A stretch of 11,466 nucleotides of DNA from Candidatus Omnitrophota bacterium (GTDB lineage Bacteria; Omnitrophota; Gorgyraeia; Zapsychrales; Fredricksoniimonadaceae), in assembly GCA_037141995.1 (NCBI GenBank), contig JBAXBM010000050.1, forward strand, positions 1 through 11,466, written 5' to 3'. The position numbers and the translations under genes were made by a program. Positions 934-11,466 of the stretch are shown here, piece after piece. The notes below the pieces were generated by a model, which made no database searches, was not told the DNA's origin, and saw only the letters and a list, made by a program, of their open reading frames with translations. Position 1 is the first letter of the stretch; each line of letters begins with the position of its first letter.

Positions 934-2130
934 ATGAATGTTACTTATTCGCATAGGGTTACAGAGATTCTTAGGAGCAGGCTTAAGGAGCCACGCAGGA
1001 CCATTCAAATTGTTCTTGGCCCACGGCAAGTGGGGAAATCAACCGCTGTTCGGGGGGTTCTAAAACAGCATGTTGGGCCGGTTGTTTATGCGTTAGCGGA
1101 TCAATCCATGCCACTAGGTTCAGAGTGGATCGCGCGTCATTGGGCTGAAGCGCGGTTGCAGGTTCAGAAAAATGAACGTGTGATCCTTGCGTTGGATGAA
1201 ATTCAGAAAGTCCCTGGTTGGACCAGTGATGTCAAGCGGCTTTGGGATGAAGATACATACAAAGAACGGGATATTCATGTTGTCCTGACGGGGTCTTCAG
1301 CGTTGACTTTGCAGAAAGGGCTTACGGAAAGTCTATTGGGGCGTTTTGAAGTGATCTGGATGCCGCATTGGTCTTTTGTAGAATGCCGGGATGCTTTCGG
1401 TTGGGGGCTTGAAGATTATTTCTTTTTCGGGGGATATCCTGGAGCAGTTGCTTATTGTCAGGATGAAGACCGTTGGCGTAATTATATGATGACGTCGATG
1501 ATCGAGCCGGTATTGACGCGTGATATCGCCCTGTTGACGACGGTACATAATCCCGCGCTATTGCGGAGATTATTGTTCCTGACGTGTGAATATGCTTCCC
1601 AGGAATTATCATACAGGAAAATCCAGGGAATATTTCAGGATGTCAGCAATACTGTGACGATCTCAGCCTATCAGCGAATGCTCGAACAGTCTTTCCTGAT
1701 AGCGGGTCTTCAGAAATGGTCGGGCGGTGCGCTTCAGAAACGAAATTCAAGCCCCAAGTGGCTGCCGTTGAACACCGGGCTTGTTACGGCTATTCAGAAT
1801 AAAAACAGAGCCGAGTTAAAGAATGATCCTGTATTCTTTGGTCGCCTCGTAGAAACGTCCATCGGGGCGCATCTTTTTAATCAGGCGATGCTTTTTAATT
1901 TTGAAGTTTATTATTGGCGTGACGGGAATATGGAGATTGACTTTATTTTCAGGAAAGGGAATAAACTGGTAGCCATTGAGGTGAAAAGTGGTTTGAATAG
2001 CGATACCAAGGCGTTTACAGTTTTTCTTAAGAAATATCCCGAGGCCAAAGTGATGCTTGTCGGAGGGCAAGGAATGCCTCTCGAAGAATTCCTAACAACA
2101 CCGATAAAAAGTTTTTTTGAGTCGATGTAG
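934..2130 (+). CDS. AAA+ superfamily ATPase of the COG1373 / DUF4143 family (predicted ATPase, function unknown).
   Basis: Walker A GPRQVGKST near the N-terminus and Walker B hhhhDE (VILALDEIQ). The C-terminal half has the typical DUF4143 pattern (YRKIQ..., ...TSIGAHLFNQ..., EIDFI...KLVAIEVKSG). Length 398 aa is typical for this family. Confidence 0.85.
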   Translation: MNVTYSHRVTEILRSRLKEPRRTIQIVLGPRQVGKSTAVRGVLKQHVGPVVYALADQSMPLGSEWIARHWAEARLQVQKNERVILALDEIQKVPGWTSDVKRLWDEDTYKERDIHVVLTGSSALTLQKGLTESLLGRFEVIWMPHWSFVECRDAFGWGLEDYFFFGGYPGAVAYCQDEDRWRNYMMTSMIEPVLTRDIALLTTVHNPALLRRLLFLTCEYASQELSYRKIQGIFQDVSNTVTISAYQRMLEQSFLIAGLQKWSGGALQKRNSSPKWLPLNTGLVTAIQNKNRAELKNDPVFFGRLVETSIGAHLFNQAMLFNFEVYYWRDGNMEIDFIFRKGNKLVAIEVKSGLNSDTKAFTVFLKKYPEAKVMLVGGQGMPLEEFLTTPIKSFFESM

Positions 2131-3003: not shown

Positions 3004-3069
3004 AAATATTTTCATGGTTTTCTGCTTTTTTATGTGGCATACTTGTTTCTGGTGGGTTTTATCCAATAG
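3004..3069 (+). promoter_or_regulatory. Copy A of a ~66-bp conserved intergenic element, also found at 4752..4817. It ends 18 nt before the start codon of the SPFH gene. Contains TGGCATACTTGTTTC (sigma-54-like -24/-12 spacing; -12 element imperfect).
   Basis: About 85% nucleotide identity to copy B over 66 nt. The position relative to the downstream start codon is identical in both copies. Confidence 0.5.
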
Positions 3070-3086
3070 ACCAAAAGGACAGATAT

Positions 3087-4067
3087 ATGCAGAATGAACA
3101 GGGATTGATCTTTAAAGGGATATATGAGTTTGAAGATCCGCTTGGCGTTCTTGTTGCCGCTAAGGTTCCGTCGGTTGGTACCTTGGATCTTTATTCCGGG
3201 ACGGCTGTTTTGGTCAAGGCCAATCAGTGCGCGCTGTTTATTTATAACGGCAAGATCGCCGATATTTTGATGCAGGGCTTGCACGAGGTCAAGACCGAGA
3301 ATTTTCCGCTTTTAACGCGGCTGGCCAACTGGCAGTTTGGGTTTGAAAGTCCTCTCCGGTGTGAGGTATGGTTTTTTTCTGGCGCTGTTTACACCAACAG
3401 GCGCTGGGGAACGTCTCAGCCAGTGATCTGTGATTTTCCGGATCACGGGATAGTGCCGGTGAGGGCGTACGGGATCTTTAATGTGGTCATGCGTGATCCC
3501 AATAAATTTTTTATGACGTTGATCGGGACGCGCAATGCGTACGATATAACTGAACTTGAGGGTCTGGTTCAGGCTCAGATCACGGAAATTCTTCCTGCGG
3601 CCATGCATGTTGTCCCGTCACTTCAGGACTTAAACAAGTCACAGACGCTGGTGGCAAAAGAACTGCAGGGGTTGGTCAATAAAACGATCGAGCAATACGG
3701 CATTGAAATTGTGAGCCTGCAGGTGATCTCGATGATCCCGTCGAAAGAGATCATGGAGGCGCTCGATGCCAAGGCGTCCATGAACATCATCGGCAATAAA
3801 CAGGAATATCTGCTTTATAAGGCGGCCAACAGCTTGATCGGGAGTCATGAGGGTGGTCATGCGAAAGGTTCCAGTGATTCCATGCAGTTGATGATGGGGT
3901 TGATGCTCGGGAAAAGCCTCCTGGATGCCAAGGAAAAAGAGCACACCATGCTGCTGAAAACAGAAGAAGCGCCTCCGATGATTGAAACAAGGTCATGTTC
4001 AAAATGTAAAGCTGTTGTCAAAGCCAGCGACAAGTTTTGTGCGTCCTGCGGAACGGAGCTGAAATGA
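3087..4067 (+). CDS. SPFH (stomatin/prohibitin/flotillin/HflK-C)-domain protein of the COG4260 type with a C-terminal zinc ribbon (YdjI-like).
   Basis: RBS AAGGA 7 nt upstream. The N-terminal region matches the COG4260 signature (GLIFKG..., NQCALFIYNGKIADI, NWQFGFESPL, EVWFFSG..., RWGTSQPV, GIVPVRAYGIFNVVMRDPNKFF, LIGT). C-terminal CSKC-x14-CASC zinc ribbon. Confidence 0.8.
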   Translation: MQNEQGLIFKGIYEFEDPLGVLVAAKVPSVGTLDLYSGTAVLVKANQCALFIYNGKIADILMQGLHEVKTENFPLLTRLANWQFGFESPLRCEVWFFSGAVYTNRRWGTSQPVICDFPDHGIVPVRAYGIFNVVMRDPNKFFMTLIGTRNAYDITELEGLVQAQITEILPAAMHVVPSLQDLNKSQTLVAKELQGLVNKTIEQYGIEIVSLQVISMIPSKEIMEALDAKASMNIIGNKQEYLLYKAANSLIGSHEGGHAKGSSDSMQLMMGLMLGKSLLDAKEKEHTMLLKTEEAPPMIETRSCSKCKAVVKASDKFCASCGTELK

Positions 4068-4738
4068 ACTTTGATATCATATGCCCCAATTGTGGTGCGG
4101 CATCTTCCATTGTGGTGGGTGTTTGCCCGTATTGCAAGACGGTCTTGTCTATTAATTCTGAGAAAGGGGATCATTCTCTGTCGGCGGTGAAAGCAGCCCA
4201 TGAAGCCGGAAAAACGGACAGGTCTCTGTCACTGGTGACGGCACTTGAACAGGAAAAGCCGGAGCTGCTGGATAATATTGAATTTGTTTTGTTGTATACC
4301 AGAATTCTTTTTGAAGTGGATGGGCCTTCCAGCAAGATCAAGTCTTTGCTGACCAAAGCCCTGATCCTGGCGCCCGGTCATCCTGATGTGTTGGAATATC
4401 TGGAAGTGATCGAGGCCGAGTCCATGATGACCCGGGAGCCCAATGATGAAGGTGAACAGCGTCTCATGCGACTCATTCGCCGCTCGCCCAATAATGTTTA
4501 TGCGTTGTTTTTCCTCGGGAGTCATTTGTTTTGGGTTCAAGGAAACGGTGGTGCTGCCCTGAAGTATCTTGAGCCGTGCGTCAGGTTGCGCCCTAATTTT
4601 ATACGGGCCAAGGCCTGTTTGGCGATGATCTACAAGGAATTAAACAAGCCGGATATGGCTAAAAGATTTTTTGATGAGTGTGCCGCCAGCACATCGAGCA
4701 ATAGGACGAAGTCATTTTTCAAAAGGCTTACGGATTGA
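4064..4738 (+). CDS. Zinc-ribbon plus TPR-like helical-repeat protein, translationally coupled to the SPFH gene through an ATGA overlap.
   Basis: Start ATG at 4064 overlaps the upstream TGA stop (4065..4067); the ORF track shows a longer 4037 start that is less likely. N-terminus is CPNC-x13-CPYC. The remainder is alpha-helical repeat-like, with LLYTRILFEV, ALILAPGHPDVLEYLEVI, ALFFLGSHLFWVQG and ACLAMIYKELNKPDMAKRFF resembling TPR units. Confidence 0.65.
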   Translation: MNFDIICPNCGAASSIVVGVCPYCKTVLSINSEKGDHSLSAVKAAHEAGKTDRSLSLVTALEQEKPELLDNIEFVLLYTRILFEVDGPSSKIKSLLTKALILAPGHPDVLEYLEVIEAESMMTREPNDEGEQRLMRLIRRSPNNVYALFFLGSHLFWVQGNGGAALKYLEPCVRLRPNFIRAKACLAMIYKELNKPDMAKRFFDECAASTSSNRTKSFFKRLTD

Positions 4739-4751
4739 TGCTCTAGCGGCC

Positions 4752-4817
4752 AAAATATTTTTTGGTTTTTTGCCTTTCTATATGGCATACTTCTTTCGGG
4801 TGGATTTTATTCAATAG
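4752..4817 (+). promoter_or_regulatory. Copy B of the ~66-bp conserved intergenic element. It ends 18 nt before the start codon of the 703-aa secreted protein and contains TGGCATACTTCTTTC.
   Basis: Alignment to 3004..3069 shows one 1-nt indel plus scattered substitutions. Same spacing to the start codon. A Shine-Dalgarno-like AAGGGGG follows. Confidence 0.5.
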
Positions 4818-4834
4818 TCTTAAGGGGGTTAAAG

Positions 4835-6946
4835 ATGTTGGAAAAACTGTATTCATTTGCCGGATTCCGGAAATTGATTTGTTGGTTGATGGCTGTTGTT
4901 TTTTTGACGGGATCAGTGATGCCCTTATATGCGCAGGGTGTGGCCGGCCTTTCATCTTCCGGGATGATGAACGTAAGCCGGACATTCACGCCGCCGATTG
5001 TCAGGGGGATGACGATTGATCCCAAGGATCCGTTTGCTTTTAAGTTTCTGATGGACCGCGGGGATGACAAGGGGTTGTCCCTGGAGGCTCGGACGGCAGT
5101 TTATGAGAAGTTGATCAAATATTTCATGGCGTCATTGGCGGTGCCGGAAGAAGATGTCTGGGTCAACCTTTCTCCCTATGAAGGGGATCGTTTGATCGCA
5201 GATAATTTTGGCATGACCGTTATGGGGCGCGACCTTCTGGAAATGGATTATGCGTTAAAGCGTGTCACGGCATCGTTATTTCATCCTGATCAGGAGCCGG
5301 GGAAGGCGTTCTGGAAGAAGGTTTATCAGGCGGCCTATGAACGTTATGGGACAACGGATGTGCCGGTCGATACGTTCAACAAGGTCTGGATCGTTCCGAG
5401 TGAGGCAAAGGTTTATGAGGACGGCAATTCTGTTATTCTGGTGAAAAGCCATCTCAAGGTCATGCTGGAGCAGGATTATTTGGCGCAGAAAAAGAATGCC
5501 GCGGTACACCCCGATAACAAGAATGATAAAGATTCCCAGTTTTCCCGCGATATTGTGCGTGAAGTCATGATTCCTATTCTTGAAAAAGAAGTCAATGACG
5601 GCGAAAATTTTGCAGTGTTACGTCAGATCACCGCATCGCTGATCCTTGCCACCTGGTATAAGAAAGCCTGGAAAGATGTTTTGTTGAACCAGGGATATAC
5701 GGATCATTCCAAGGTCAAAGGCGTTGACCAGGATCCTGCTAATAACCAGATTATCTACAACCAATATGTGGAAGCATTCAAGCAGGGCGCTGTGAATCTG
5801 GTCCGTGAAGAATATGATACGTTATCGCAGGAAATGATGCCACGGAAATATTTCTCCGGCGGTTACGGCACAAAGATGACAACAGATGATGGGCAGACAA
5901 CGTCTTTACAGCAACGATTAGAAGAAGTATCTCAGTCGCCGATGTTGGATCCAAAGAAAACGGAGTTGGTGGCGGCGTCTTTGATGCCAACGGCAAGAAC
6001 AACAGTTGCCGGGTTATTCCGACCTGTTTCACGCTTGGCGCTTCTTATTGTGTTGTGGACAGGGGCTTTCTTTCAACCAACGACAGCGGCTTTAGCAGAA
6101 TATAGAAGTACACAAAGTTTTACATATACGAACGGTTCTAGAACTCAAAAAATGGAGTTGATTGTTACTGATCCTGGCGTTGTTGTGACAGATGTGTGGG
6201 ATACTCAATCAAAGATGCTACGTGATTTCACGGATACTGTAAATACAGTAATTATAATGTCTAGGAGTAATGAGTTAGGGGCCTTAGATACACTTGGGAA
6301 GCTTGAAGCAAGAGTCAAAGCAGGGAAGGCCTCAGAAGAGGCGATATTGAAGGGGTTGGTTCAAAAGCAATTTGTTGCTTTATTAATGAATGGGAAAAAG
6401 CCTGTTGATATATCTCCGTTTCTTCAAGCGTATACTGATTGTTTGCAAGAGATAGGGCGGGTACGAAAGACTATAGACAACAATAATAAGATACGGGCTT
6501 ATAATGAAGCTGTGGAGCAGAATAATGCTAAAGCACGAGAATTCAATAAAAATCAAGCGAAGTATTCCTCTGTTGTGAAGGGGTATGTTGAGATTTTTAA
6601 TAAGAAGCAACGTGACCCAGTAGAAATGAAAAAATTATCGGTAAGCATAGGTCAACTTCTTGCGCAACCAGATTTGCCTTCAAATTTCAGGGCAACTCTT
6701 CAGCAAATTAAAACATGGATAGATAAGGCGGAGAATGTAAAGAAACCAAAGCTTGTGACAGATAAGAATCTTGGTGGTATTGATTTGAATGCCAATTCTT
6801 TTAACCTTGAGGTTGAATCGCGTAAGGAAGCCAGGGGCTTGGTGTCTCCTGTTTTGGTTGATCTTGTTGCCCTTGAAGGCTTGAGCCCACGGATATTGTC
6901 CGTCACGTCCGCCAGTGAATATGTAAAGATGTTTTCAGGAAAGTAA
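4835..6946 (+). CDS. Large secreted or exported protein of unknown function (703 aa) with an N-terminal signal peptide. Possibly a fusion or two-domain protein with an internal hydrophobic signal-like segment near residues 384-420.
   Basis: Signal peptide MLEKLYSFAGFRKLICWLMAVVFLTGSVMPLYAQG. No recognisable catalytic motifs. GC falls from ~50% to ~40% after about nt 6040. Confidence 0.6.
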   Translation: MLEKLYSFAGFRKLICWLMAVVFLTGSVMPLYAQGVAGLSSSGMMNVSRTFTPPIVRGMTIDPKDPFAFKFLMDRGDDKGLSLEARTAVYEKLIKYFMASLAVPEEDVWVNLSPYEGDRLIADNFGMTVMGRDLLEMDYALKRVTASLFHPDQEPGKAFWKKVYQAAYERYGTTDVPVDTFNKVWIVPSEAKVYEDGNSVILVKSHLKVMLEQDYLAQKKNAAVHPDNKNDKDSQFSRDIVREVMIPILEKEVNDGENFAVLRQITASLILATWYKKAWKDVLLNQGYTDHSKVKGVDQDPANNQIIYNQYVEAFKQGAVNLVREEYDTLSQEMMPRKYFSGGYGTKMTTDDGQTTSLQQRLEEVSQSPMLDPKKTELVAASLMPTARTTVAGLFRPVSRLALLIVLWTGAFFQPTTAALAEYRSTQSFTYTNGSRTQKMELIVTDPGVVVTDVWDTQSKMLRDFTDTVNTVIIMSRSNELGALDTLGKLEARVKAGKASEEAILKGLVQKQFVALLMNGKKPVDISPFLQAYTDCLQEIGRVRKTIDNNNKIRAYNEAVEQNNAKAREFNKNQAKYSSVVKGYVEIFNKKQRDPVEMKKLSVSIGQLLAQPDLPSNFRATLQQIKTWIDKAENVKKPKLVTDKNLGGIDLNANSFNLEVESRKEARGLVSPVLVDLVALEGLSPRILSVTSASEYVKMFSGK

Positions 6947-7050
6947 TAGTGGCAGGGTATTGAATATTTCATCGACAAAATCACAATCAACCTTATAATG
7001 GCGCTGTTCAGGCGGGATTAATGGCTGGCGGCGCTATGAGAAAATCGTAG

Positions 7051-7183
7051 ATGTTTAGCGCCTTGTGTGCTCGCCGCGCCGAGCGCCGAGTGCTTTTTCG
7101 CCTGGAACGAGGGGGTTTATCCCCCGAGAGAAGCCGAAAGAGTGGCGCGGTATGGCAGGCGAGAAATCGAATGCGCTAAACAT
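7051..7183 (+). ncRNA. Copy 1 of a ~133-nt structured repeat element, immediately upstream of ygiQ and overlapping its start codon. Candidate cis-regulatory RNA or MITE-like structured repeat, with four helices supported by covariation against copy 2.
   Basis: P1 7051..7061 pairs with 7173..7183 (ATGTTTAGCGC / GCGCTAAACAT). P2 7070..7080 pairs with 7144..7148 plus 7158..7163. P3 7093..7100 CTTTTTCG pairs with 7135..7142 CGAAAGAG. P4 is the hairpin GGGGG-TTTAT-CCCCC at 7111..7125. Confidence 0.6.
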
Positions 7184-8960
7184 GCATAAAAAAACTTCGT
7201 TTCTTCCCATGTATCTTGATGAGATGGCGGCTCGGGGGTGGGGTGAGCTGGACGTTATTATCATCAGCGGCGATGCGTATGTGGATCATCCTTCCTACGG
7301 CACGGCATTGATCGGGCGTCTCCTGGAAAGCAAGGGTTATCGCGTGGGTATTATCGCCCAGCCGGACTGGCGGTCGCTGGATGATTTTACGCGCCTGGGG
7401 CGTCCGCGTTTGTGCGTTTGTGTGACGGCGGGCAATGTGGATTCCATGGTTGCCCATTACACGGCCAACAAGCGGCGGCGGCAGGGGGATGATTTTGCGC
7501 CGGGCGGCAAGGACGGCTTGAGGCCGGATCGTGCGGCGATTGTGTATGCTAATCGTGCTAAGGCGGCATTCAAGGGCCTGCCGGTGATCCTGGGCGGTGT
7601 TGAGGCCAGCATGCGGCGCTTGGCGCATTACGATTACTGGGATGATGCGGTGCGGCGTTCGGTATTGATCGATGCCAAGGCGGACATGATCATTTACGGC
7701 ATGGCAGAGCGGCCTGTTGTGGAAGTGATGGCGCGGCTGGCGCAGGGTGAGGCGATCGCAGCGATCCGTGATGTGCGCGGCACCGTGGTGCGTGTGAAGC
7801 CGGCGGAATTTCCTGCGGGGACGATAGAATTGCCGTCGTTTGAAGATATCAGCCGTGACCCTGAAATTTTTAACCAGGCATTTCGCCTGGCTTATGCGGA
7901 AATGTCGCCGGAAGACGGCAAGCCTTTGGCCCAGCGGCATGCGGATCAGTGTGTGCTGCAATTGCCCCCGGCATTGCCATTGACACCTCAAGAACTTGAC
8001 GCCGGTTATGATCTGGCGTATGCGCGCACATGGCATCCGTCGTATGATGCCTTGGGCGGCGTGAAGGGTTTAGAGACAGTGCGCTGGTCGATCACAGCGG
8101 TGCGCGGCTGTCCCGGGGAGTGTCATTTTTGCGGGATCACGTTCCATCAGGGGCGGATCGTGCAGAGCCGGAGCGTGGCGTCCATTGTGCGGGAAGCTGA
8201 AGGCCTCGCGCGCGACCCGGCGTTTCGGGGGACGATTCAGGATGTGGGCGGGCCGACAGCGAATTTATACGGTGCCAGTTGTGCCAATTGGAATAAAGGC
8301 CGGGTATGCCGCGGCAAGCAGTGCCTGATGCCATCGAAATGCCCGTCGCTGGATCTGGGGTGCCGGGAAGCGGTTTCCTTGTATGAAGCGATACGGCGTG
8401 TGCCGGGCATAAAACATATGTTCGTGCAGAGCGGTTTGAGGTATGATCTCTTGCTCGAACCGGCGGCGCTCGATTATTTCAAGGTGTTATGCCGTTATCA
8501 TGTCAGCGGGCAGATGAAGGTGGCTCCCGAGCATACATCCGACGAGGTTTTAGCGCTCATGAACAAGCCGCCCTATGCGCGGTATGAGGCTTTTGTCCGG
8601 CTTTTCAATGAGATCAATGCGGGGCTTGGCAAGAAGCAGTTTCTGGTGAATTATTTTGTCAGCGCGCATCCCGGGGCAGGGCTTAAGGAAGCGTTTGATT
8701 GTGCGTCAATGCTTTTATCCCGCGGGATGCATCCGGAACAGGTGCAAGATTTTCTGCCTTTACCCATGACGGTATCGGCGTGCATGTATCACACGGGGAA
8801 GCATCCTCTGACGGGCAAGAGTGTTTATGTGCCGCGGAAAGACAATGAACGCGCGATGCAGAGGGCCCTTGTGCAGTCGCAGAATCCTGGTAATGCGCCC
8901 TTGATTGACAAGGCGCTTAATATTTTAGGTAAACAGGGAGTTAAGAAAAAATTTAAATAA
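7182..8960 (+). CDS. ygiQ: YgiQ-family radical SAM protein (UPF0313).
   Basis: The N-terminus FLPMYLDEMAARGWGELDVIIISGDAYVDHPSYG matches the conserved YgiQ N-terminal domain. Radical SAM cluster motif CPGECHFC (C-x3-C-x2-C). Start chosen at the MHKK methionine (7182) rather than the 7065 start in the ORF track, which would read through the structured repeat. Confidence 0.85.
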   Translation: MHKKTSFLPMYLDEMAARGWGELDVIIISGDAYVDHPSYGTALIGRLLESKGYRVGIIAQPDWRSLDDFTRLGRPRLCVCVTAGNVDSMVAHYTANKRRRQGDDFAPGGKDGLRPDRAAIVYANRAKAAFKGLPVILGGVEASMRRLAHYDYWDDAVRRSVLIDAKADMIIYGMAERPVVEVMARLAQGEAIAAIRDVRGTVVRVKPAEFPAGTIELPSFEDISRDPEIFNQAFRLAYAEMSPEDGKPLAQRHADQCVLQLPPALPLTPQELDAGYDLAYARTWHPSYDALGGVKGLETVRWSITAVRGCPGECHFCGITFHQGRIVQSRSVASIVREAEGLARDPAFRGTIQDVGGPTANLYGASCANWNKGRVCRGKQCLMPSKCPSLDLGCREAVSLYEAIRRVPGIKHMFVQSGLRYDLLLEPAALDYFKVLCRYHVSGQMKVAPEHTSDEVLALMNKPPYARYEAFVRLFNEINAGLGKKQFLVNYFVSAHPGAGLKEAFDCASMLLSRGMHPEQVQDFLPLPMTVSACMYHTGKHPLTGKSVYVPRKDNERAMQRALVQSQNPGNAPLIDKALNILGKQGVKKKFK

Positions 8961-8962
8961 TG

Positions 8963-9098
8963 GTATTCAGCGCCCTGTGTTTTCGCCGCGCCAAGCGCCG
9001 AGTGCCTTTCCGCCTGGAACGAGGGGGCCGCAGCCCCCGAGAGAAGCCGGAAGGGTGGCGCGATAAGGCAGGCGAAAAGATCTGATGCGCTGAACGTG
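8963..9098 (+). ncRNA. Copy 2 of the ~133-nt structured repeat element. It lies between the ygiQ stop and the ybiT start, ending about 27 nt before the ybiT start codon.
   Basis: About 85% identity to copy 1. Every helix is preserved through compensatory changes: P1 TTCAGCGC/GCGCTGAA vs TTTAGCGC/GCGCTAAA; P2 TTCGCC/GGCGAA vs CTCGCC/GGCGAG; P3 CCTTTCCG/CGGAAGGG vs CTTTTTCG/CGAAAGAG. The P4 stem is kept while its loop differs. Confidence 0.6.
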
Positions 9099-9125
9099 TG
9101 CAATTAAACAAGAGAGGTAATCAGC

Positions 9126-10745
9126 ATGATCACGGTTAATAATGTTACGCTTCAATATGGCCAGCGGAAACTTTTTTCCGGTGTTAATATCAGTTTCTCC
9201 CAGGGTAATTGCTACGGCCTTATCGGCGCCAATGGATCCGGCAAATCAACGTTCCTGAAGATCTTGTCCGGCGAGATTGACTCAACCGAAGGTACAGTGG
9301 CCATTGATCCCGGCAAGCGCATGTCGGTGTTGCGCCAGGATCATTTTGCGTTTGATGAGCAGACGGTTTTGACAACGGTCATCATGGGGCACAAGCGGCT
9401 TTTTGATGTCATGCTGGAAAAAGACGCCATTTATGCCAAGGCAGATTTTACTGATGCCGACGGCATGCGTGTTTCCGAGCTGGAAGCCGAGTTTGCGGAA
9501 ATGGACGGGTGGAACGCGGAATCTGATGCCGGCAAACTCTTGGCGGAACTGGGGATCGCGACCTCAGCGCACACCCAGCAGATGAAACAGCTCGAGGGCG
9601 GCGACAAGGTGCGTGTGCTGTTGGCCCAGGCGCTTTTTGGCAATCCCGATATCCTTCTTCTCGACGAGCCGACGAACCATCTTGATGTCGAGACCTGCAT
9701 GTGGCTGGAGGAATTTCTTTCCCGTTTCGAGAATACGGCGATCGTTGTTTCCCATGACCGCCATTTTCTCGACAATGTGTGCACGCATATCGCCGACATT
9801 GATTTCGGGAAGGTTAAGATTTACTCCGGCAATTATACGTTCTGGTCGGAATCAAGCCGCCTCGCCGCAAAGCAGCGTAGTGAAGAGAATAAGAAGGTCG
9901 AGGACCGCCGCAAGGAATTGCAGGATTTCATCGCACGCTTCAGTTCCAATTTGTCAAAGTCGCGTCAGGCAACAAGCCGTAAAAAGATCCTCGAGAAACT
10001 TGTCATCGAGGACATTGAACCGTCTTCGCGTAAATATCCGTATGTGCATTTTGAGCAGGAACGCGAGGCCGGCAACGACCTCTTGGGGGTGGATGATCTG
10101 GCCAAATCTTTGGACGGGCAGGTCATGTTCAAGAAGTTATCATTTACGATTGAAAAGGGAGACAAGGTGGCTTTTGTGGGATCCAATGATCTGATCAAGA
10201 CGACACTTTTTCAGATTCTCATGGGCGAACTTCCGGCGGATAAAGGGACGTTCAAGTGGGGCTTCTCGACAAAGCGCGCCTATTTCCCGAAAGACAATGC
10301 CGAATATTTCAAGTCTGATCTCAGTGTCGTTGACTGGCTGAGGCAGTATTCCGAAGAGAAGGCCGAAGTTTTTATCCGCGGCTTTTTAGGCAAGATGCTT
10401 TTTACCGGTGAAGAATCCCAGAAACCGGCCAAGGTCCTTTCAGGCGGCGAGAAAGTCCGCTGTATGCTTTCACGCATGATGCTCATGAAGCCCAACGTTG
10501 TGATTCTCGACGAGCCGACCAGTCACCTGGATCTCGAGTCGATCACCGCACTCAATGAGGGGCTGAAGCGCTTTAAGGGCACGATCCTTTTCTCGTCGCA
10601 TGACCATGAGCTGGTGCAGACCGTCGCCAACCGCATCATCGAGATCACGCCGGCGGGCATGATCGACCGTACGGGTACAACGTTTGATGATTATCTGTCC
10701 GATGAACGCGTCAAAACCCTGCGGGCAGAGTTTGCCAGGGTTTAA
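9126..10745 (+). CDS. ybiT: ABC-F family ATPase (tandem ABC domains, no transmembrane domain), YbiT/EttA-like.
   Basis: Near collinear similarity to E. coli YbiT as I recall it: NVT.QYG...GLIGANGSGKSTF.KIL, RQDHFAF.E.TVL.TVIMGH, RVLLAQALF..PDILLLDEPTN.LD, SHDRHFL..VCTH.AD.D. Second half has KPAKVLSGGEK, ILDEPTSHLD and SHD. RBS AGAGAGG upstream. Confidence 0.9.
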   Translation: MITVNNVTLQYGQRKLFSGVNISFSQGNCYGLIGANGSGKSTFLKILSGEIDSTEGTVAIDPGKRMSVLRQDHFAFDEQTVLTTVIMGHKRLFDVMLEKDAIYAKADFTDADGMRVSELEAEFAEMDGWNAESDAGKLLAELGIATSAHTQQMKQLEGGDKVRVLLAQALFGNPDILLLDEPTNHLDVETCMWLEEFLSRFENTAIVVSHDRHFLDNVCTHIADIDFGKVKIYSGNYTFWSESSRLAAKQRSEENKKVEDRRKELQDFIARFSSNLSKSRQATSRKKILEKLVIEDIEPSSRKYPYVHFEQEREAGNDLLGVDDLAKSLDGQVMFKKLSFTIEKGDKVAFVGSNDLIKTTLFQILMGELPADKGTFKWGFSTKRAYFPKDNAEYFKSDLSVVDWLRQYSEEKAEVFIRGFLGKMLFTGEESQKPAKVLSGGEKVRCMLSRMMLMKPNVVILDEPTSHLDLESITALNEGLKRFKGTILFSSHDHELVQTVANRIIEITPAGMIDRTGTTFDDYLSDERVKTLRAEFARV

Positions 10746-10749
10746 CTAT

Positions 10750-11466
10750 CTATTTTAGTATTGTTATCAGTTCCTGCGGGGAAACGATGCGGACGAAATC
10801 GACGGCGCGGGGATGCTCGACCGGGCAGACACAATAACAGGGGACGTCAGGATATTCCGTGTGAAAGGCTTTAAGGCCTGTCAGGTCGCGCAGGCCAATA
10901 TGCGGGGTGGATTTGCATTCAATGGCATAGAGGATGGACGCTCCGCGGCTGATCAGCAGGTCAACTTCAGCTCCATTGTTTGTGCGCCAGAAGTTGAATT
11001 TCCAGTCGAGCTGGTGGTATTCATTGAGGTGTGTCAATTCCTGGATAACCCATTGTTCAAACAGTCGGCCTTGTTGGATCGGGTTGTTGTTGTCTCTAAG
11101 GGTTCCCAGGATCGAGCGGGTGACGCCATTATCAAAGAAGTAGAATTTCGGGCTATGGCTCATCCTTTGACGCAGGCTTTTCAAATAAGGGAAAATAAAA
11201 AAGCCGATGAGGGTATCTTCAAGGATGGCGTAATATTCCCGGACCGTTGATAATGAAACCTGGCATTCCCGGGAGACGGAAGAAAAATTGATCTGTTGGG
11301 CAAATTGAGCCGCCGCAATATCAAGAAAATTCTGAAACCCGTTAAGGTTTCGCACCAAAGCTTCGGCTTTGATTTCTTCGCTGAGGTAGGCAACGGTGTA
11401 GGCGCGCAGGAGATCTTGTGCCTGGTCCATTTTATTTTCCAGTAGCAGGCTGTAAATTCTTGGCAT
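10750..11466 (-). CDS. C-terminal DUF4143 portion of a second COG1373-type AAA+ ATPase. It is 5'-truncated at the window edge; the N-terminal ATPase domain lies beyond position 11466.
   Basis: DUF4143-like motifs: NFSSVSRECQVSLSTVREYYAILEDTLIGFFIFPY, KFYFFDNGV, LFEQWVIQEL, EVDLLI...AIECKS. These parallel the C-terminal half of the 934..2130 protein. The frame is open to the window end. Confidence 0.75.
   Translation of the reverse strand: MPRIYSLLLENKMDQAQDLLRAYTVAYLSEEIKAEALVRNLNGFQNFLDIAAAQFAQQINFSSVSRECQVSLSTVREYYAILEDTLIGFFIFPYLKSLRQRMSHSPKFYFFDNGVTRSILGTLRDNNNPIQQGRLFEQWVIQELTHLNEYHQLDWKFNFWRTNNGAEVDLLISRGASILYAIECKSTPHIGLRDLTGLKAFHTEYPDVPCYCVCPVEHPRAVDFVRIVSPQELITILK

Follow-up and report, generated by a model that had tools for sequence, protein, structure and literature searches.

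MITEs are non-coding, non-autonomous DNA transposons, which are typically AT-rich, although this is not a defining feature. Both the ERIC sequences of enterobacteria and the Correia elements, which are MITEs of Neisseria, duplicate TA, and the Correia elements also carry promoter elements and an IHF site. Prokaryotic MITEs are shorter than 500 bp, bear terminal inverted repeats (TIRs) of 4-30 bp, are flanked by direct repeats that decay, and occur between genes in multiple copies, the copy numbers ranging from 1-22 to hundreds; once transcribed, they are often predicted to form very stable hairpins (PMC10969869). The repetitive intergenic consensus of enterobacteria (ERIC or IRU, ~127 bp) is now also regarded as a MITE, and the inverted-repeat hairpin of the Correia elements is a substrate of RNase III (PMC10969869).

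Candidatus Omnitrophota is largely uncultivated, and its mobile elements have been little described in the searchable literature. Here, we explore a stretch of 11,466 nt of Omnitrophota DNA (the window), in which two copies of a hairpin-forming element stand before the adjacent genes ygiQ and ybiT. The element is most probably a non-coding, non-autonomous DNA transposon (MITE) of Candidatus Omnitrophota, ~138-140 bp in length, which makes a 9-11-bp target duplication and is moved in trans. No paper linking Omnitrophica or Omnitrophota with MITEs was found in the literature, and the family is undescribed in Candidatus Omnitrophota as far as the searched literature shows.

Among the described systems, ERIC is similar in size, is likewise an imperfect palindrome over most of its length and occurs in either orientation. 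Like the present element, ERIC is strictly or mostly intergenic and yet lies inside transcription units, its sequence is highly conserved across species, and its presence or absence differs between related genomes, with copy numbers from tens upward (PMC10969869). However, the two have no sequence similarity, since copy 1 had no match in 5,426 complete E. coli genomes (blastn, word size 11), and the present element belongs to a different phylum, is GC-rich and has a target duplication of ~9-11 bp. QMITE2 of Coxiella burnetii and Chunjie of Geobacter, with direct repeats of 7-9 bp, share with it the layout of direct repeats, TIRs and core, a full-length transcript predicted to form a very stable hairpin, an intergenic or 3'-UTR location, and direct repeats that decay with age (PMC10969869). 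Their sequences and hosts are unrelated to those described here, for which fewer copies have been documented so far and in which the core itself is fully palindromic and better conserved than the termini. The Correia elements are similar in being co-transcribed with neighbouring genes, and by analogy their cleavage by RNase III is a plausible model for the effect of the window copies on the ygiQ-ybiT mRNA; unlike the Correia elements, to which they have no sequence relation, neither window copy contains a promoter-like site.

The two copies at the ygiQ-ybiT locus

The two copies are ~138-140 nt long, ~88% identical and both on the + strand (Table 1). In the repeat search, 7054-7115 pairs with 8966-9027 and 7121-7165 with 9034-9078 (89% identity each), and in the pairwise alignment the likeness reaches ~7050-7187 and ~8962-9101, with matched stretches 85-89% identical; the ends given in the table were fixed by the flanking target duplications. 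The second copy had been placed at 8963-9098 in a preliminary description of this DNA, which is essentially right and is refined here to 8962-9101. The same description held that both copies are in + orientation and 5' of + strand genes, as the coordinates of ygiQ and ybiT bear out, and that these genes encode a radical SAM protein and an ABC-F ATPase, with which Pfam agrees for both. Copy 1 lies directly on the 5' side of ygiQ, whose start (ATG 7182) it overlaps, while copy 2 fills the gap from the stop codon of ygiQ (8958-8960) to the ATG of ybiT.

Table 1. Features of the ygiQ-ybiT locus in the window, with the two element copies and their flanking duplications.
Feature	Coordinates	Strand	Remarks
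Predicted sigma-70-like promoter of ygiQ, TCGACA-16 nt-TATAAT	6972..6999	+	11/12 matches; catcgacaaa...tataatggcgctgttc also in L019 6566-6615
Left target-site duplication, copy 1, ATGAGAAAATCGTA	7036..7049	+	Orphaned ancestral ygiQ ATG (7036-7038), then TAG (7048-7050)
Probable MITE, copy 1	7050..7187	+	Subfamily A; apical GGGGG-TTTAT-CCCCC; termini GATGTTTAGCGCC ... GCGCTAAACATGCAT; 169.9 bits (covariance model)
ygiQ (radical SAM, 592 aa)	7182..8960	+	Pfam Radical_SAM_N/DUF3362
Right target-site duplication, copy 1, AAAAAAACTTCGT	7188..7200	+	Encodes YgiQ residues 3-6 (KKTS)
Left target-site duplication, copy 2, AATTTAAATAAT	8950..8961	+	Holds new ygiQ stop TAA (8958-8960)
Probable MITE, copy 2 (element between ygiQ and ybiT)	8962..9101	+	Subfamily B-like; apical GGGGG-CCGCAG-CCCCC; termini GGTATTCAGCGCC ... 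GCGCTGAACGTGTGC; 164.9 bits (covariance model)
Right target-site duplication, copy 2, AATTAAACAA	9102..9111	+	Followed by retained ybiT Shine-Dalgarno GAGAGG (9112-9117), ATG 9126
ybiT-like ABC-F ATPase gene	9126..10745	+	Pfam ABC_tran, ABC_tran_Xtn, ABC_tran; overlaps ygiQ by 14 nt in relatives

Each copy folds into one long imperfect hairpin. The rod of copy 1 has a predicted energy of -66.1 kcal/mol (z = -5.4), with no shuffle equally good, and that of copy 2 has -69.4 kcal/mol (z = -4.1), with 0 of 200 shuffles as good. The apical loops are TTTAT in copy 1 (7116-7120) and CCGCAG in copy 2 (9028-9033), and the G5/C5 stem below them is kept in both (7111-7115/7121-7125 and 9023-9027/9034-9038, respectively); a loop that differs over a conserved stem had already been noticed from the letters, and the coordinates agree. 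Read from the alignment, four compensatory double changes distinguish the copies: the outer stem has one from U-A to C-G, the second stem one from C-G to U-A, and the long middle stem two from U-A to C-G.

The promoter predicted upstream of ygiQ is conserved in the element-free relative L019, and copy 1 therefore falls within the 5' untranslated region of ygiQ. Both copies are probably co-transcribed with the ygiQ-ybiT operon from this promoter. No intrinsic terminator (GC hairpin followed by a T-run) was found at 7050-7187 or 8962-9101, the downstream sequences being CATAAAAAAA and AATTAAAC, and the whole window has no Rfam match at E <= 1.

The element is GC-rich and contains few stop codons, so that both ORF finders and publicly available gene calls run straight across it. 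For example, the longer ygiQ ORFs starting in copy 1 (GTG 7065, 631 aa; ATG 7152, cf. 602 aa in P0001) are read-through artefacts, and a spurious 41-aa ORF is found within copy 2 on contig SESG01030993.1 (L001, 1768-1893). In annotation, the two hairpins should not be labelled riboswitch-like leaders, and the ORFs running through them should be treated as artefactual.

It should be noted that this SESG01 contig is identical to the 3' part of the window except for one base in 4,274 compared, at 8977 (G in the window vs. T), within copy 2. The T variant is present in other copies, so that the difference may reflect repeat copies mixed up during assembly or a divergence between strains.

Insertion junctions and their probable local effects

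In the closest relatives, L019/L020 (YgiQ 86% identical), as well as in L021 (74%), ygiQ and ybiT overlap by 14 nt, and the same overlap occurs at three further places among those listed. Upstream of ygiQ, L019 has a spacer of only 72 nt, which is element-free, and no element was found with the covariance model over 58 kb around the ygiQ-ybiT loci of these relatives. The insertion junctions were read directly, since the global alignment was uninformative owing to the large gap. At both window sites, L019/L020 and L021 are without the element, and the sequence that they carry in a single copy is duplicated on either side of each window copy. The absence of the element from orthologous sites in close relatives points to recent insertion, and therefore argues against a gene-specific regulator.

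For copy 1, a single ATGAAAAAATCTTCC (L019) or ATGAAAAAAACGCCG (L021) stands at the start of ygiQ in the relatives. The last six bases of copy 1 carry an ATG (7182-7184) that aligns with the ygiQ start of the relatives; the N-terminus of YgiQ reads MHKKTSFLPM in the window vs. MKKSSFLPM in the relative, and the DNA at the start is MHKKTSFLPMYLDEM vs. MKKSSFLPMYLDEV (L019). Copy 1 would have landed on the start codon of ygiQ, cutting the gene off from its original Shine-Dalgarno sequence and ATG, and the terminal ATG of the copy, together with the right target duplication, would restore a relative-like N-terminus. The donated ATG would sit in the outer stem, where occlusion of the ygiQ start is possible.

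For copy 2, the relatives have a single ATTTCAAACAGAGAGG / ATTTCAAACA (L019) or AATTTAAACC (L021), just before the Shine-Dalgarno sequence of ybiT. In the window, AATTTAAATAA to the left of the copy (8950-8960) supplies a new TAA, and YgiQ is 9 residues shorter than in L019 and L021. This copy would have inserted 9 codons short of the ygiQ end, within the region where ygiQ and ybiT overlap, and would thereby have shortened YgiQ, made a spacer of 165 nt and uncoupled ygiQ from ybiT while leaving the ribosome-binding site of ybiT intact. In the ygiQ-ybiT mRNA, both copies would form very stable rods, and processing by RNase III or RNase E is possible. We infer that any effects of either copy on expression would be incidental to insertion and would not reflect dedicated regulation. 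The locus is a clean natural illustration of the consequences of such insertions, with one insertion that replaced a ribosome-binding site and start codon, apparently donating a new ATG, and another that split an ancestrally overlapping gene pair.

The repeat family, its hairpin and its termini

When one genome per species was scanned for the exact pattern of the apical part, three matches were obtained, all in Candidatus Omnitrophica MAGs, and a looser pattern, with the apical stem-loop left free, matched 14 stretches in metagenome contigs. With duplicate loci removed, 17 distinct copies are present in Candidatus Omnitrophota MAGs and metagenomes, all intergenic, at non-homologous sites and ascertained via a 23-nt exact anchor. 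Viral contigs, plasmids, phages and E. coli genomes yielded no sequence match to the element. Among the 17 copies, 11 come from metagenome Ga0114951 and five from SESG01 and the window population (four in SESG01); for a single MAG, AM4_bin-704, at least three copies lie on matching contigs. The median pairwise identity is 87%, and two subfamilies can be distinguished. The covariance model built from the 17 copies scored every one of them at 131-181 bits in the 160 kb searched, and found nothing further there except weak opposite-strand echoes of known copies (19-34 bits). The cmsearch matches are 141-152 nt long with short flanks included, the element itself being 138-140 bp. The GC content of the element is 0.52-0.63 in the cmsearch table, and that of the window mostly 0.37-0.63.

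The length from anchor to anchor varies among the copies (31-34 nt), so that the reading frame past the apex is not kept and the element is non-coding. A coding reading was considered, as the + strand frame is open from the terminal ATG in some copies, and it was rejected because the differences in loop length shift the frame.

The consensus structure consists of 38 pairs, with 98.1% of the cells paired and double changes in 8 pairs, compared with 4.0 pairs in column shuffles and 0-2 pairs when the partners were slid by 1-3 columns. Within it, the outer helix has 7 pairs, 94% of cells paired and 3 pairs with double changes. Therefore, the suggestion first drawn from the two window copies, that the stem and not the loop is constrained, holds family-wide. 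The non-anchored part of the interior is 92-95% conserved vs. 73-80% for the termini, and in 16 of the 17 copies the + strand gives a more stable fold than the - strand, by 7 kcal/mol on average, an advantage to which two conserved G-U pairs contribute. Compensatory changes confined to a single copy occur in L012, L017 and copy 2 of the window (win2). Changes private to one copy number 0.29 per paired column vs. 0.63 per unpaired column, about half, although the counts are small and gaps inflate those for loops. Such a deficit in paired columns would not be expected from neutral decay following insertion, and it hints that the hairpin is under selection; some constraint, related either to transposition or to the RNA, may act on it.

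The inverted termini of the element are (C)ATGTTTAGCGCC ... GGCGCTAAACNTG, and they are flanked by AT-rich direct repeats of ~9-11 bp. For the duplication test, the boundaries were placed family-wide 4 nt ahead of TTTAGC and 6 nt beyond AAAC. Over the 17 copies, the best match between the flanking 10-mers averages 6.47/10, compared with 5.09 when the left flank of one copy is paired with the right flank of another, and matches of at least 7/10 are found in 10 of the 17 copies vs. 9% of the controls (permutation p ~5e-5). Clean duplications are seen at L016 (CATTCTTTT), L015 (TCTTGATT(A)GTT), L018, L003 and L007; most of the target duplications are degenerate, with 5-8/10 matches.

A sibling repeat of ~190 nt (L022, 19287-19476) has the same termini as the element, TATGCTTAGCGG ... 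AACGCTAAACATAC, around an unrelated interior, and it is also a full-length rod (-94 kcal/mol, z = -10). The termini common to both are ATGYTTAGCG...CGCTAAACAT. Two families that share only their ends are expected if a single transposase recognises those ends. A transposase encoded elsewhere would bind the shared termini and move the element in trans, with cuts staggered by ~9-10 bp in AT-rich intergenic DNA. The parent insertion sequence was sought in the 195 kb of loci with the terminal 18-mer (up to 3 mismatches) and with short terminal motifs; the searches returned only small elements and the L022 sibling, and neither an autonomous insertion sequence nor a transposase with such termini was found in these 195 kb. 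With their common termini, the two families define the recognition sequence of a transposase, by which the autonomous element could be sought.

L022 is a more distant Omnitrophota genome (GCA_974330525.1; YgiQ 73% identical). A partial or rearranged sibling copy, with an internal tandem duplication of ~60 nt, is located in the ygiQ-ybiT spacer of that genome (L022, 11771-12010), so that the same junction was hit independently by the sibling family.

Taken over nearly its whole length, the element is an imperfect palindrome. It is shorter than 500 bp and non-coding, with terminal inverted repeats, target duplications, dispersed intergenic copies and presence/absence polymorphism; its composition is GC-rich instead of the AT-rich composition typical of MITEs, and it is the target duplications that are AT-rich. 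Since the size, TIRs, direct repeats, intergenic multicopy occurrence and stable hairpin match the published description, the element is assigned to the MITEs.

Neighbouring genes, orientation and competing readings

The gene context of each copy was taken from codon-usage-scored gene calls, with most strands checked by Pfam or tRNA matches. Where the flanking genes are co-directional, 7 copies are sense (win1, win2, L004, L005a, L011, L012 and L017) and 7 are antisense (L002, L005b, L008, L009, L015, L016 and L018); the other three (L003, L007 and L014) lie in a divergent region or at a contig end. The neighbours are functionally unrelated, including a GAF-ANTAR regulator, glutamine synthetase III, a FabA-like dehydratase, a lumazine-binding-domain protein (riboflavin synthase type), ThiF, a PLP enzyme, fructose-bisphosphate aldolase, shikimate kinase, an RNase T-like exonuclease, a class I (Glu/Gln-type) aminoacyl-tRNA synthetase and tRNA-Val.

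Two of these loci have further peculiarities. In L005, inverted copies at 3615-3749 (+) and 5120-5254 (-) bracket one GAF-GAF-ANTAR regulator gene, with a gene for a type III glutamine synthetase just downstream of it. A composite transposon was considered for L005 and rejected, as the enclosed gene is the GAF-ANTAR regulator beside glutamine synthetase III and no transposase is present. In L004, the copy at 6277-6410 ends 13 nt before tRNA-Val (6424-6497) on the same strand, and its right end is apparently truncated (GCGCTAAATAATACG).

These contexts bear directly on whether the hairpin could be a shared cis-regulatory leader or attenuator, that is, an RNA sensor or attenuator controlling ygiQ and ybiT. 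Such a role would suit the two window copies, which are sense, 5' of their genes and inside the transcript predicted from 6972-6999, and it would suit the stable structure with covariation, the better folding of the + strand in 16 of the 17 copies and the two conserved G-U pairs. The likeness to the leader or attenuator RNAs of antibiotic-resistance ABC-F genes is one of position only, in that a structured RNA lies 5' of, and on the same strand as, an ABC-F gene. Unlike those leaders, however, the element is not conserved with the gene: it is missing from the orthologous loci of the closest relatives, where ybiT is leaderless and overlaps ygiQ. It has no leader peptide, no terminator/antiterminator alternative and no T-run, matches nothing in Rfam at E <= 1, lies between target duplications, and stands antisense to the flanking genes in 7 of the 14 co-directional contexts, beside genes of unrelated function. 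We consider a leader or attenuator extremely unlikely.

The preliminary description offered two readings. The first, a shared cis-regulatory leader or attenuator thought plausible from ABC-F attenuation, is contradicted by the leaderless orthologous ybiT and by the 7 sense vs. 7 antisense copies. From the second, the structured repetitive extragenic element stands, while the proposed role as a terminator falls away, there being no GC hairpin with a T-run at either copy. Dispersal of dozens of copies through the genome, with no positional preference, had been named as the finding that would speak against a gene-specific regulator, and the outcome is of that kind in spirit: the 17 copies, 11 of which come from a single metagenome, show no preferred orientation.

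The element might also be a domesticated mobile RNA module, which spreads as a MITE while its + sense transcript has a selected function, such as an RNase III/RNase E processing site or an mRNA stabiliser. The interior that is better conserved than the termini, the private changes that are ~2-fold rarer in paired columns, the compensatory changes in the single copies L012, L017 and win2, and the + strand more stable by 7 kcal/mol on average are all consistent with such a function, and precedents exist in the RNase III cleavage of Correia-containing mRNAs and the RNase E effects of ERIC (PMC10969869). However, half of the co-directional copies are antisense and would therefore be transcribed as the less stable strand. 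In addition, conservation at paired positions may stem from the transposition competence of master copies or from arm-to-arm repair of the palindrome, and the comparison is affected by small counts, gap-inflated loop counts and ascertainment through the 23-nt exact anchor. A selected function of the + sense transcript is regarded as unlikely. Taken more broadly, the rod hairpin could be a selected structural module, serving either transposition (e.g., as a single-stranded or cruciform intermediate recognised full-length) or a function of the RNA in host transcripts. Such a module would account for the better conservation of paired positions and inner loops than of the termini, the single-copy compensatory changes, and the two unrelated full-length rods behind the same termini; in our judgement it is rather unlikely.

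Finally, a GC-rich, palindromic and strictly intergenic sequence with a strand-asymmetric fold, near which no classical transposase was found, could be a palindrome of the REP/BIME type that a RAYT transposase (IS200/IS605-like, single-strand) mobilises, or a small-RNA gene in multiple copies that carries its own promoter. REPs are 20-40 nt long, and insertion of the RAYT or IS200 type does not duplicate the target, whereas the unit here is ~140 nt with 9-11-bp duplications; no RAYT gene was seen among the neighbouring genes scanned. As to a small RNA, the similarity stops abruptly at the termini, so that no conserved upstream promoter travels with the copies, the window copies have neither a promoter-like nor a terminator-like site, and no Rfam family matches. 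Both possibilities are very unlikely, and a MITE moved in trans remains the preferred reading.

Apart from the element, the window holds a second, unrelated direct repeat of 69 nt (3010-3078 and 4758-4826, 80% identical), which lies just upstream of an SPFH/zinc-ribbon gene (3087) and of a 703-aa gene without Pfam matches (4835). It contains TGGCATACTT(G/C)TTTC, which resembles a sigma-54 -24/-12 promoter, and the repeat may be a shared promoter region. Several paralogous AAA_14/DUF4143 ATPase genes are also clustered around the locus, at 934-2130 (+) and 10750-11466 (-) in the window and at 3558-4709 (-) and 4890-6095 (+) in L001.
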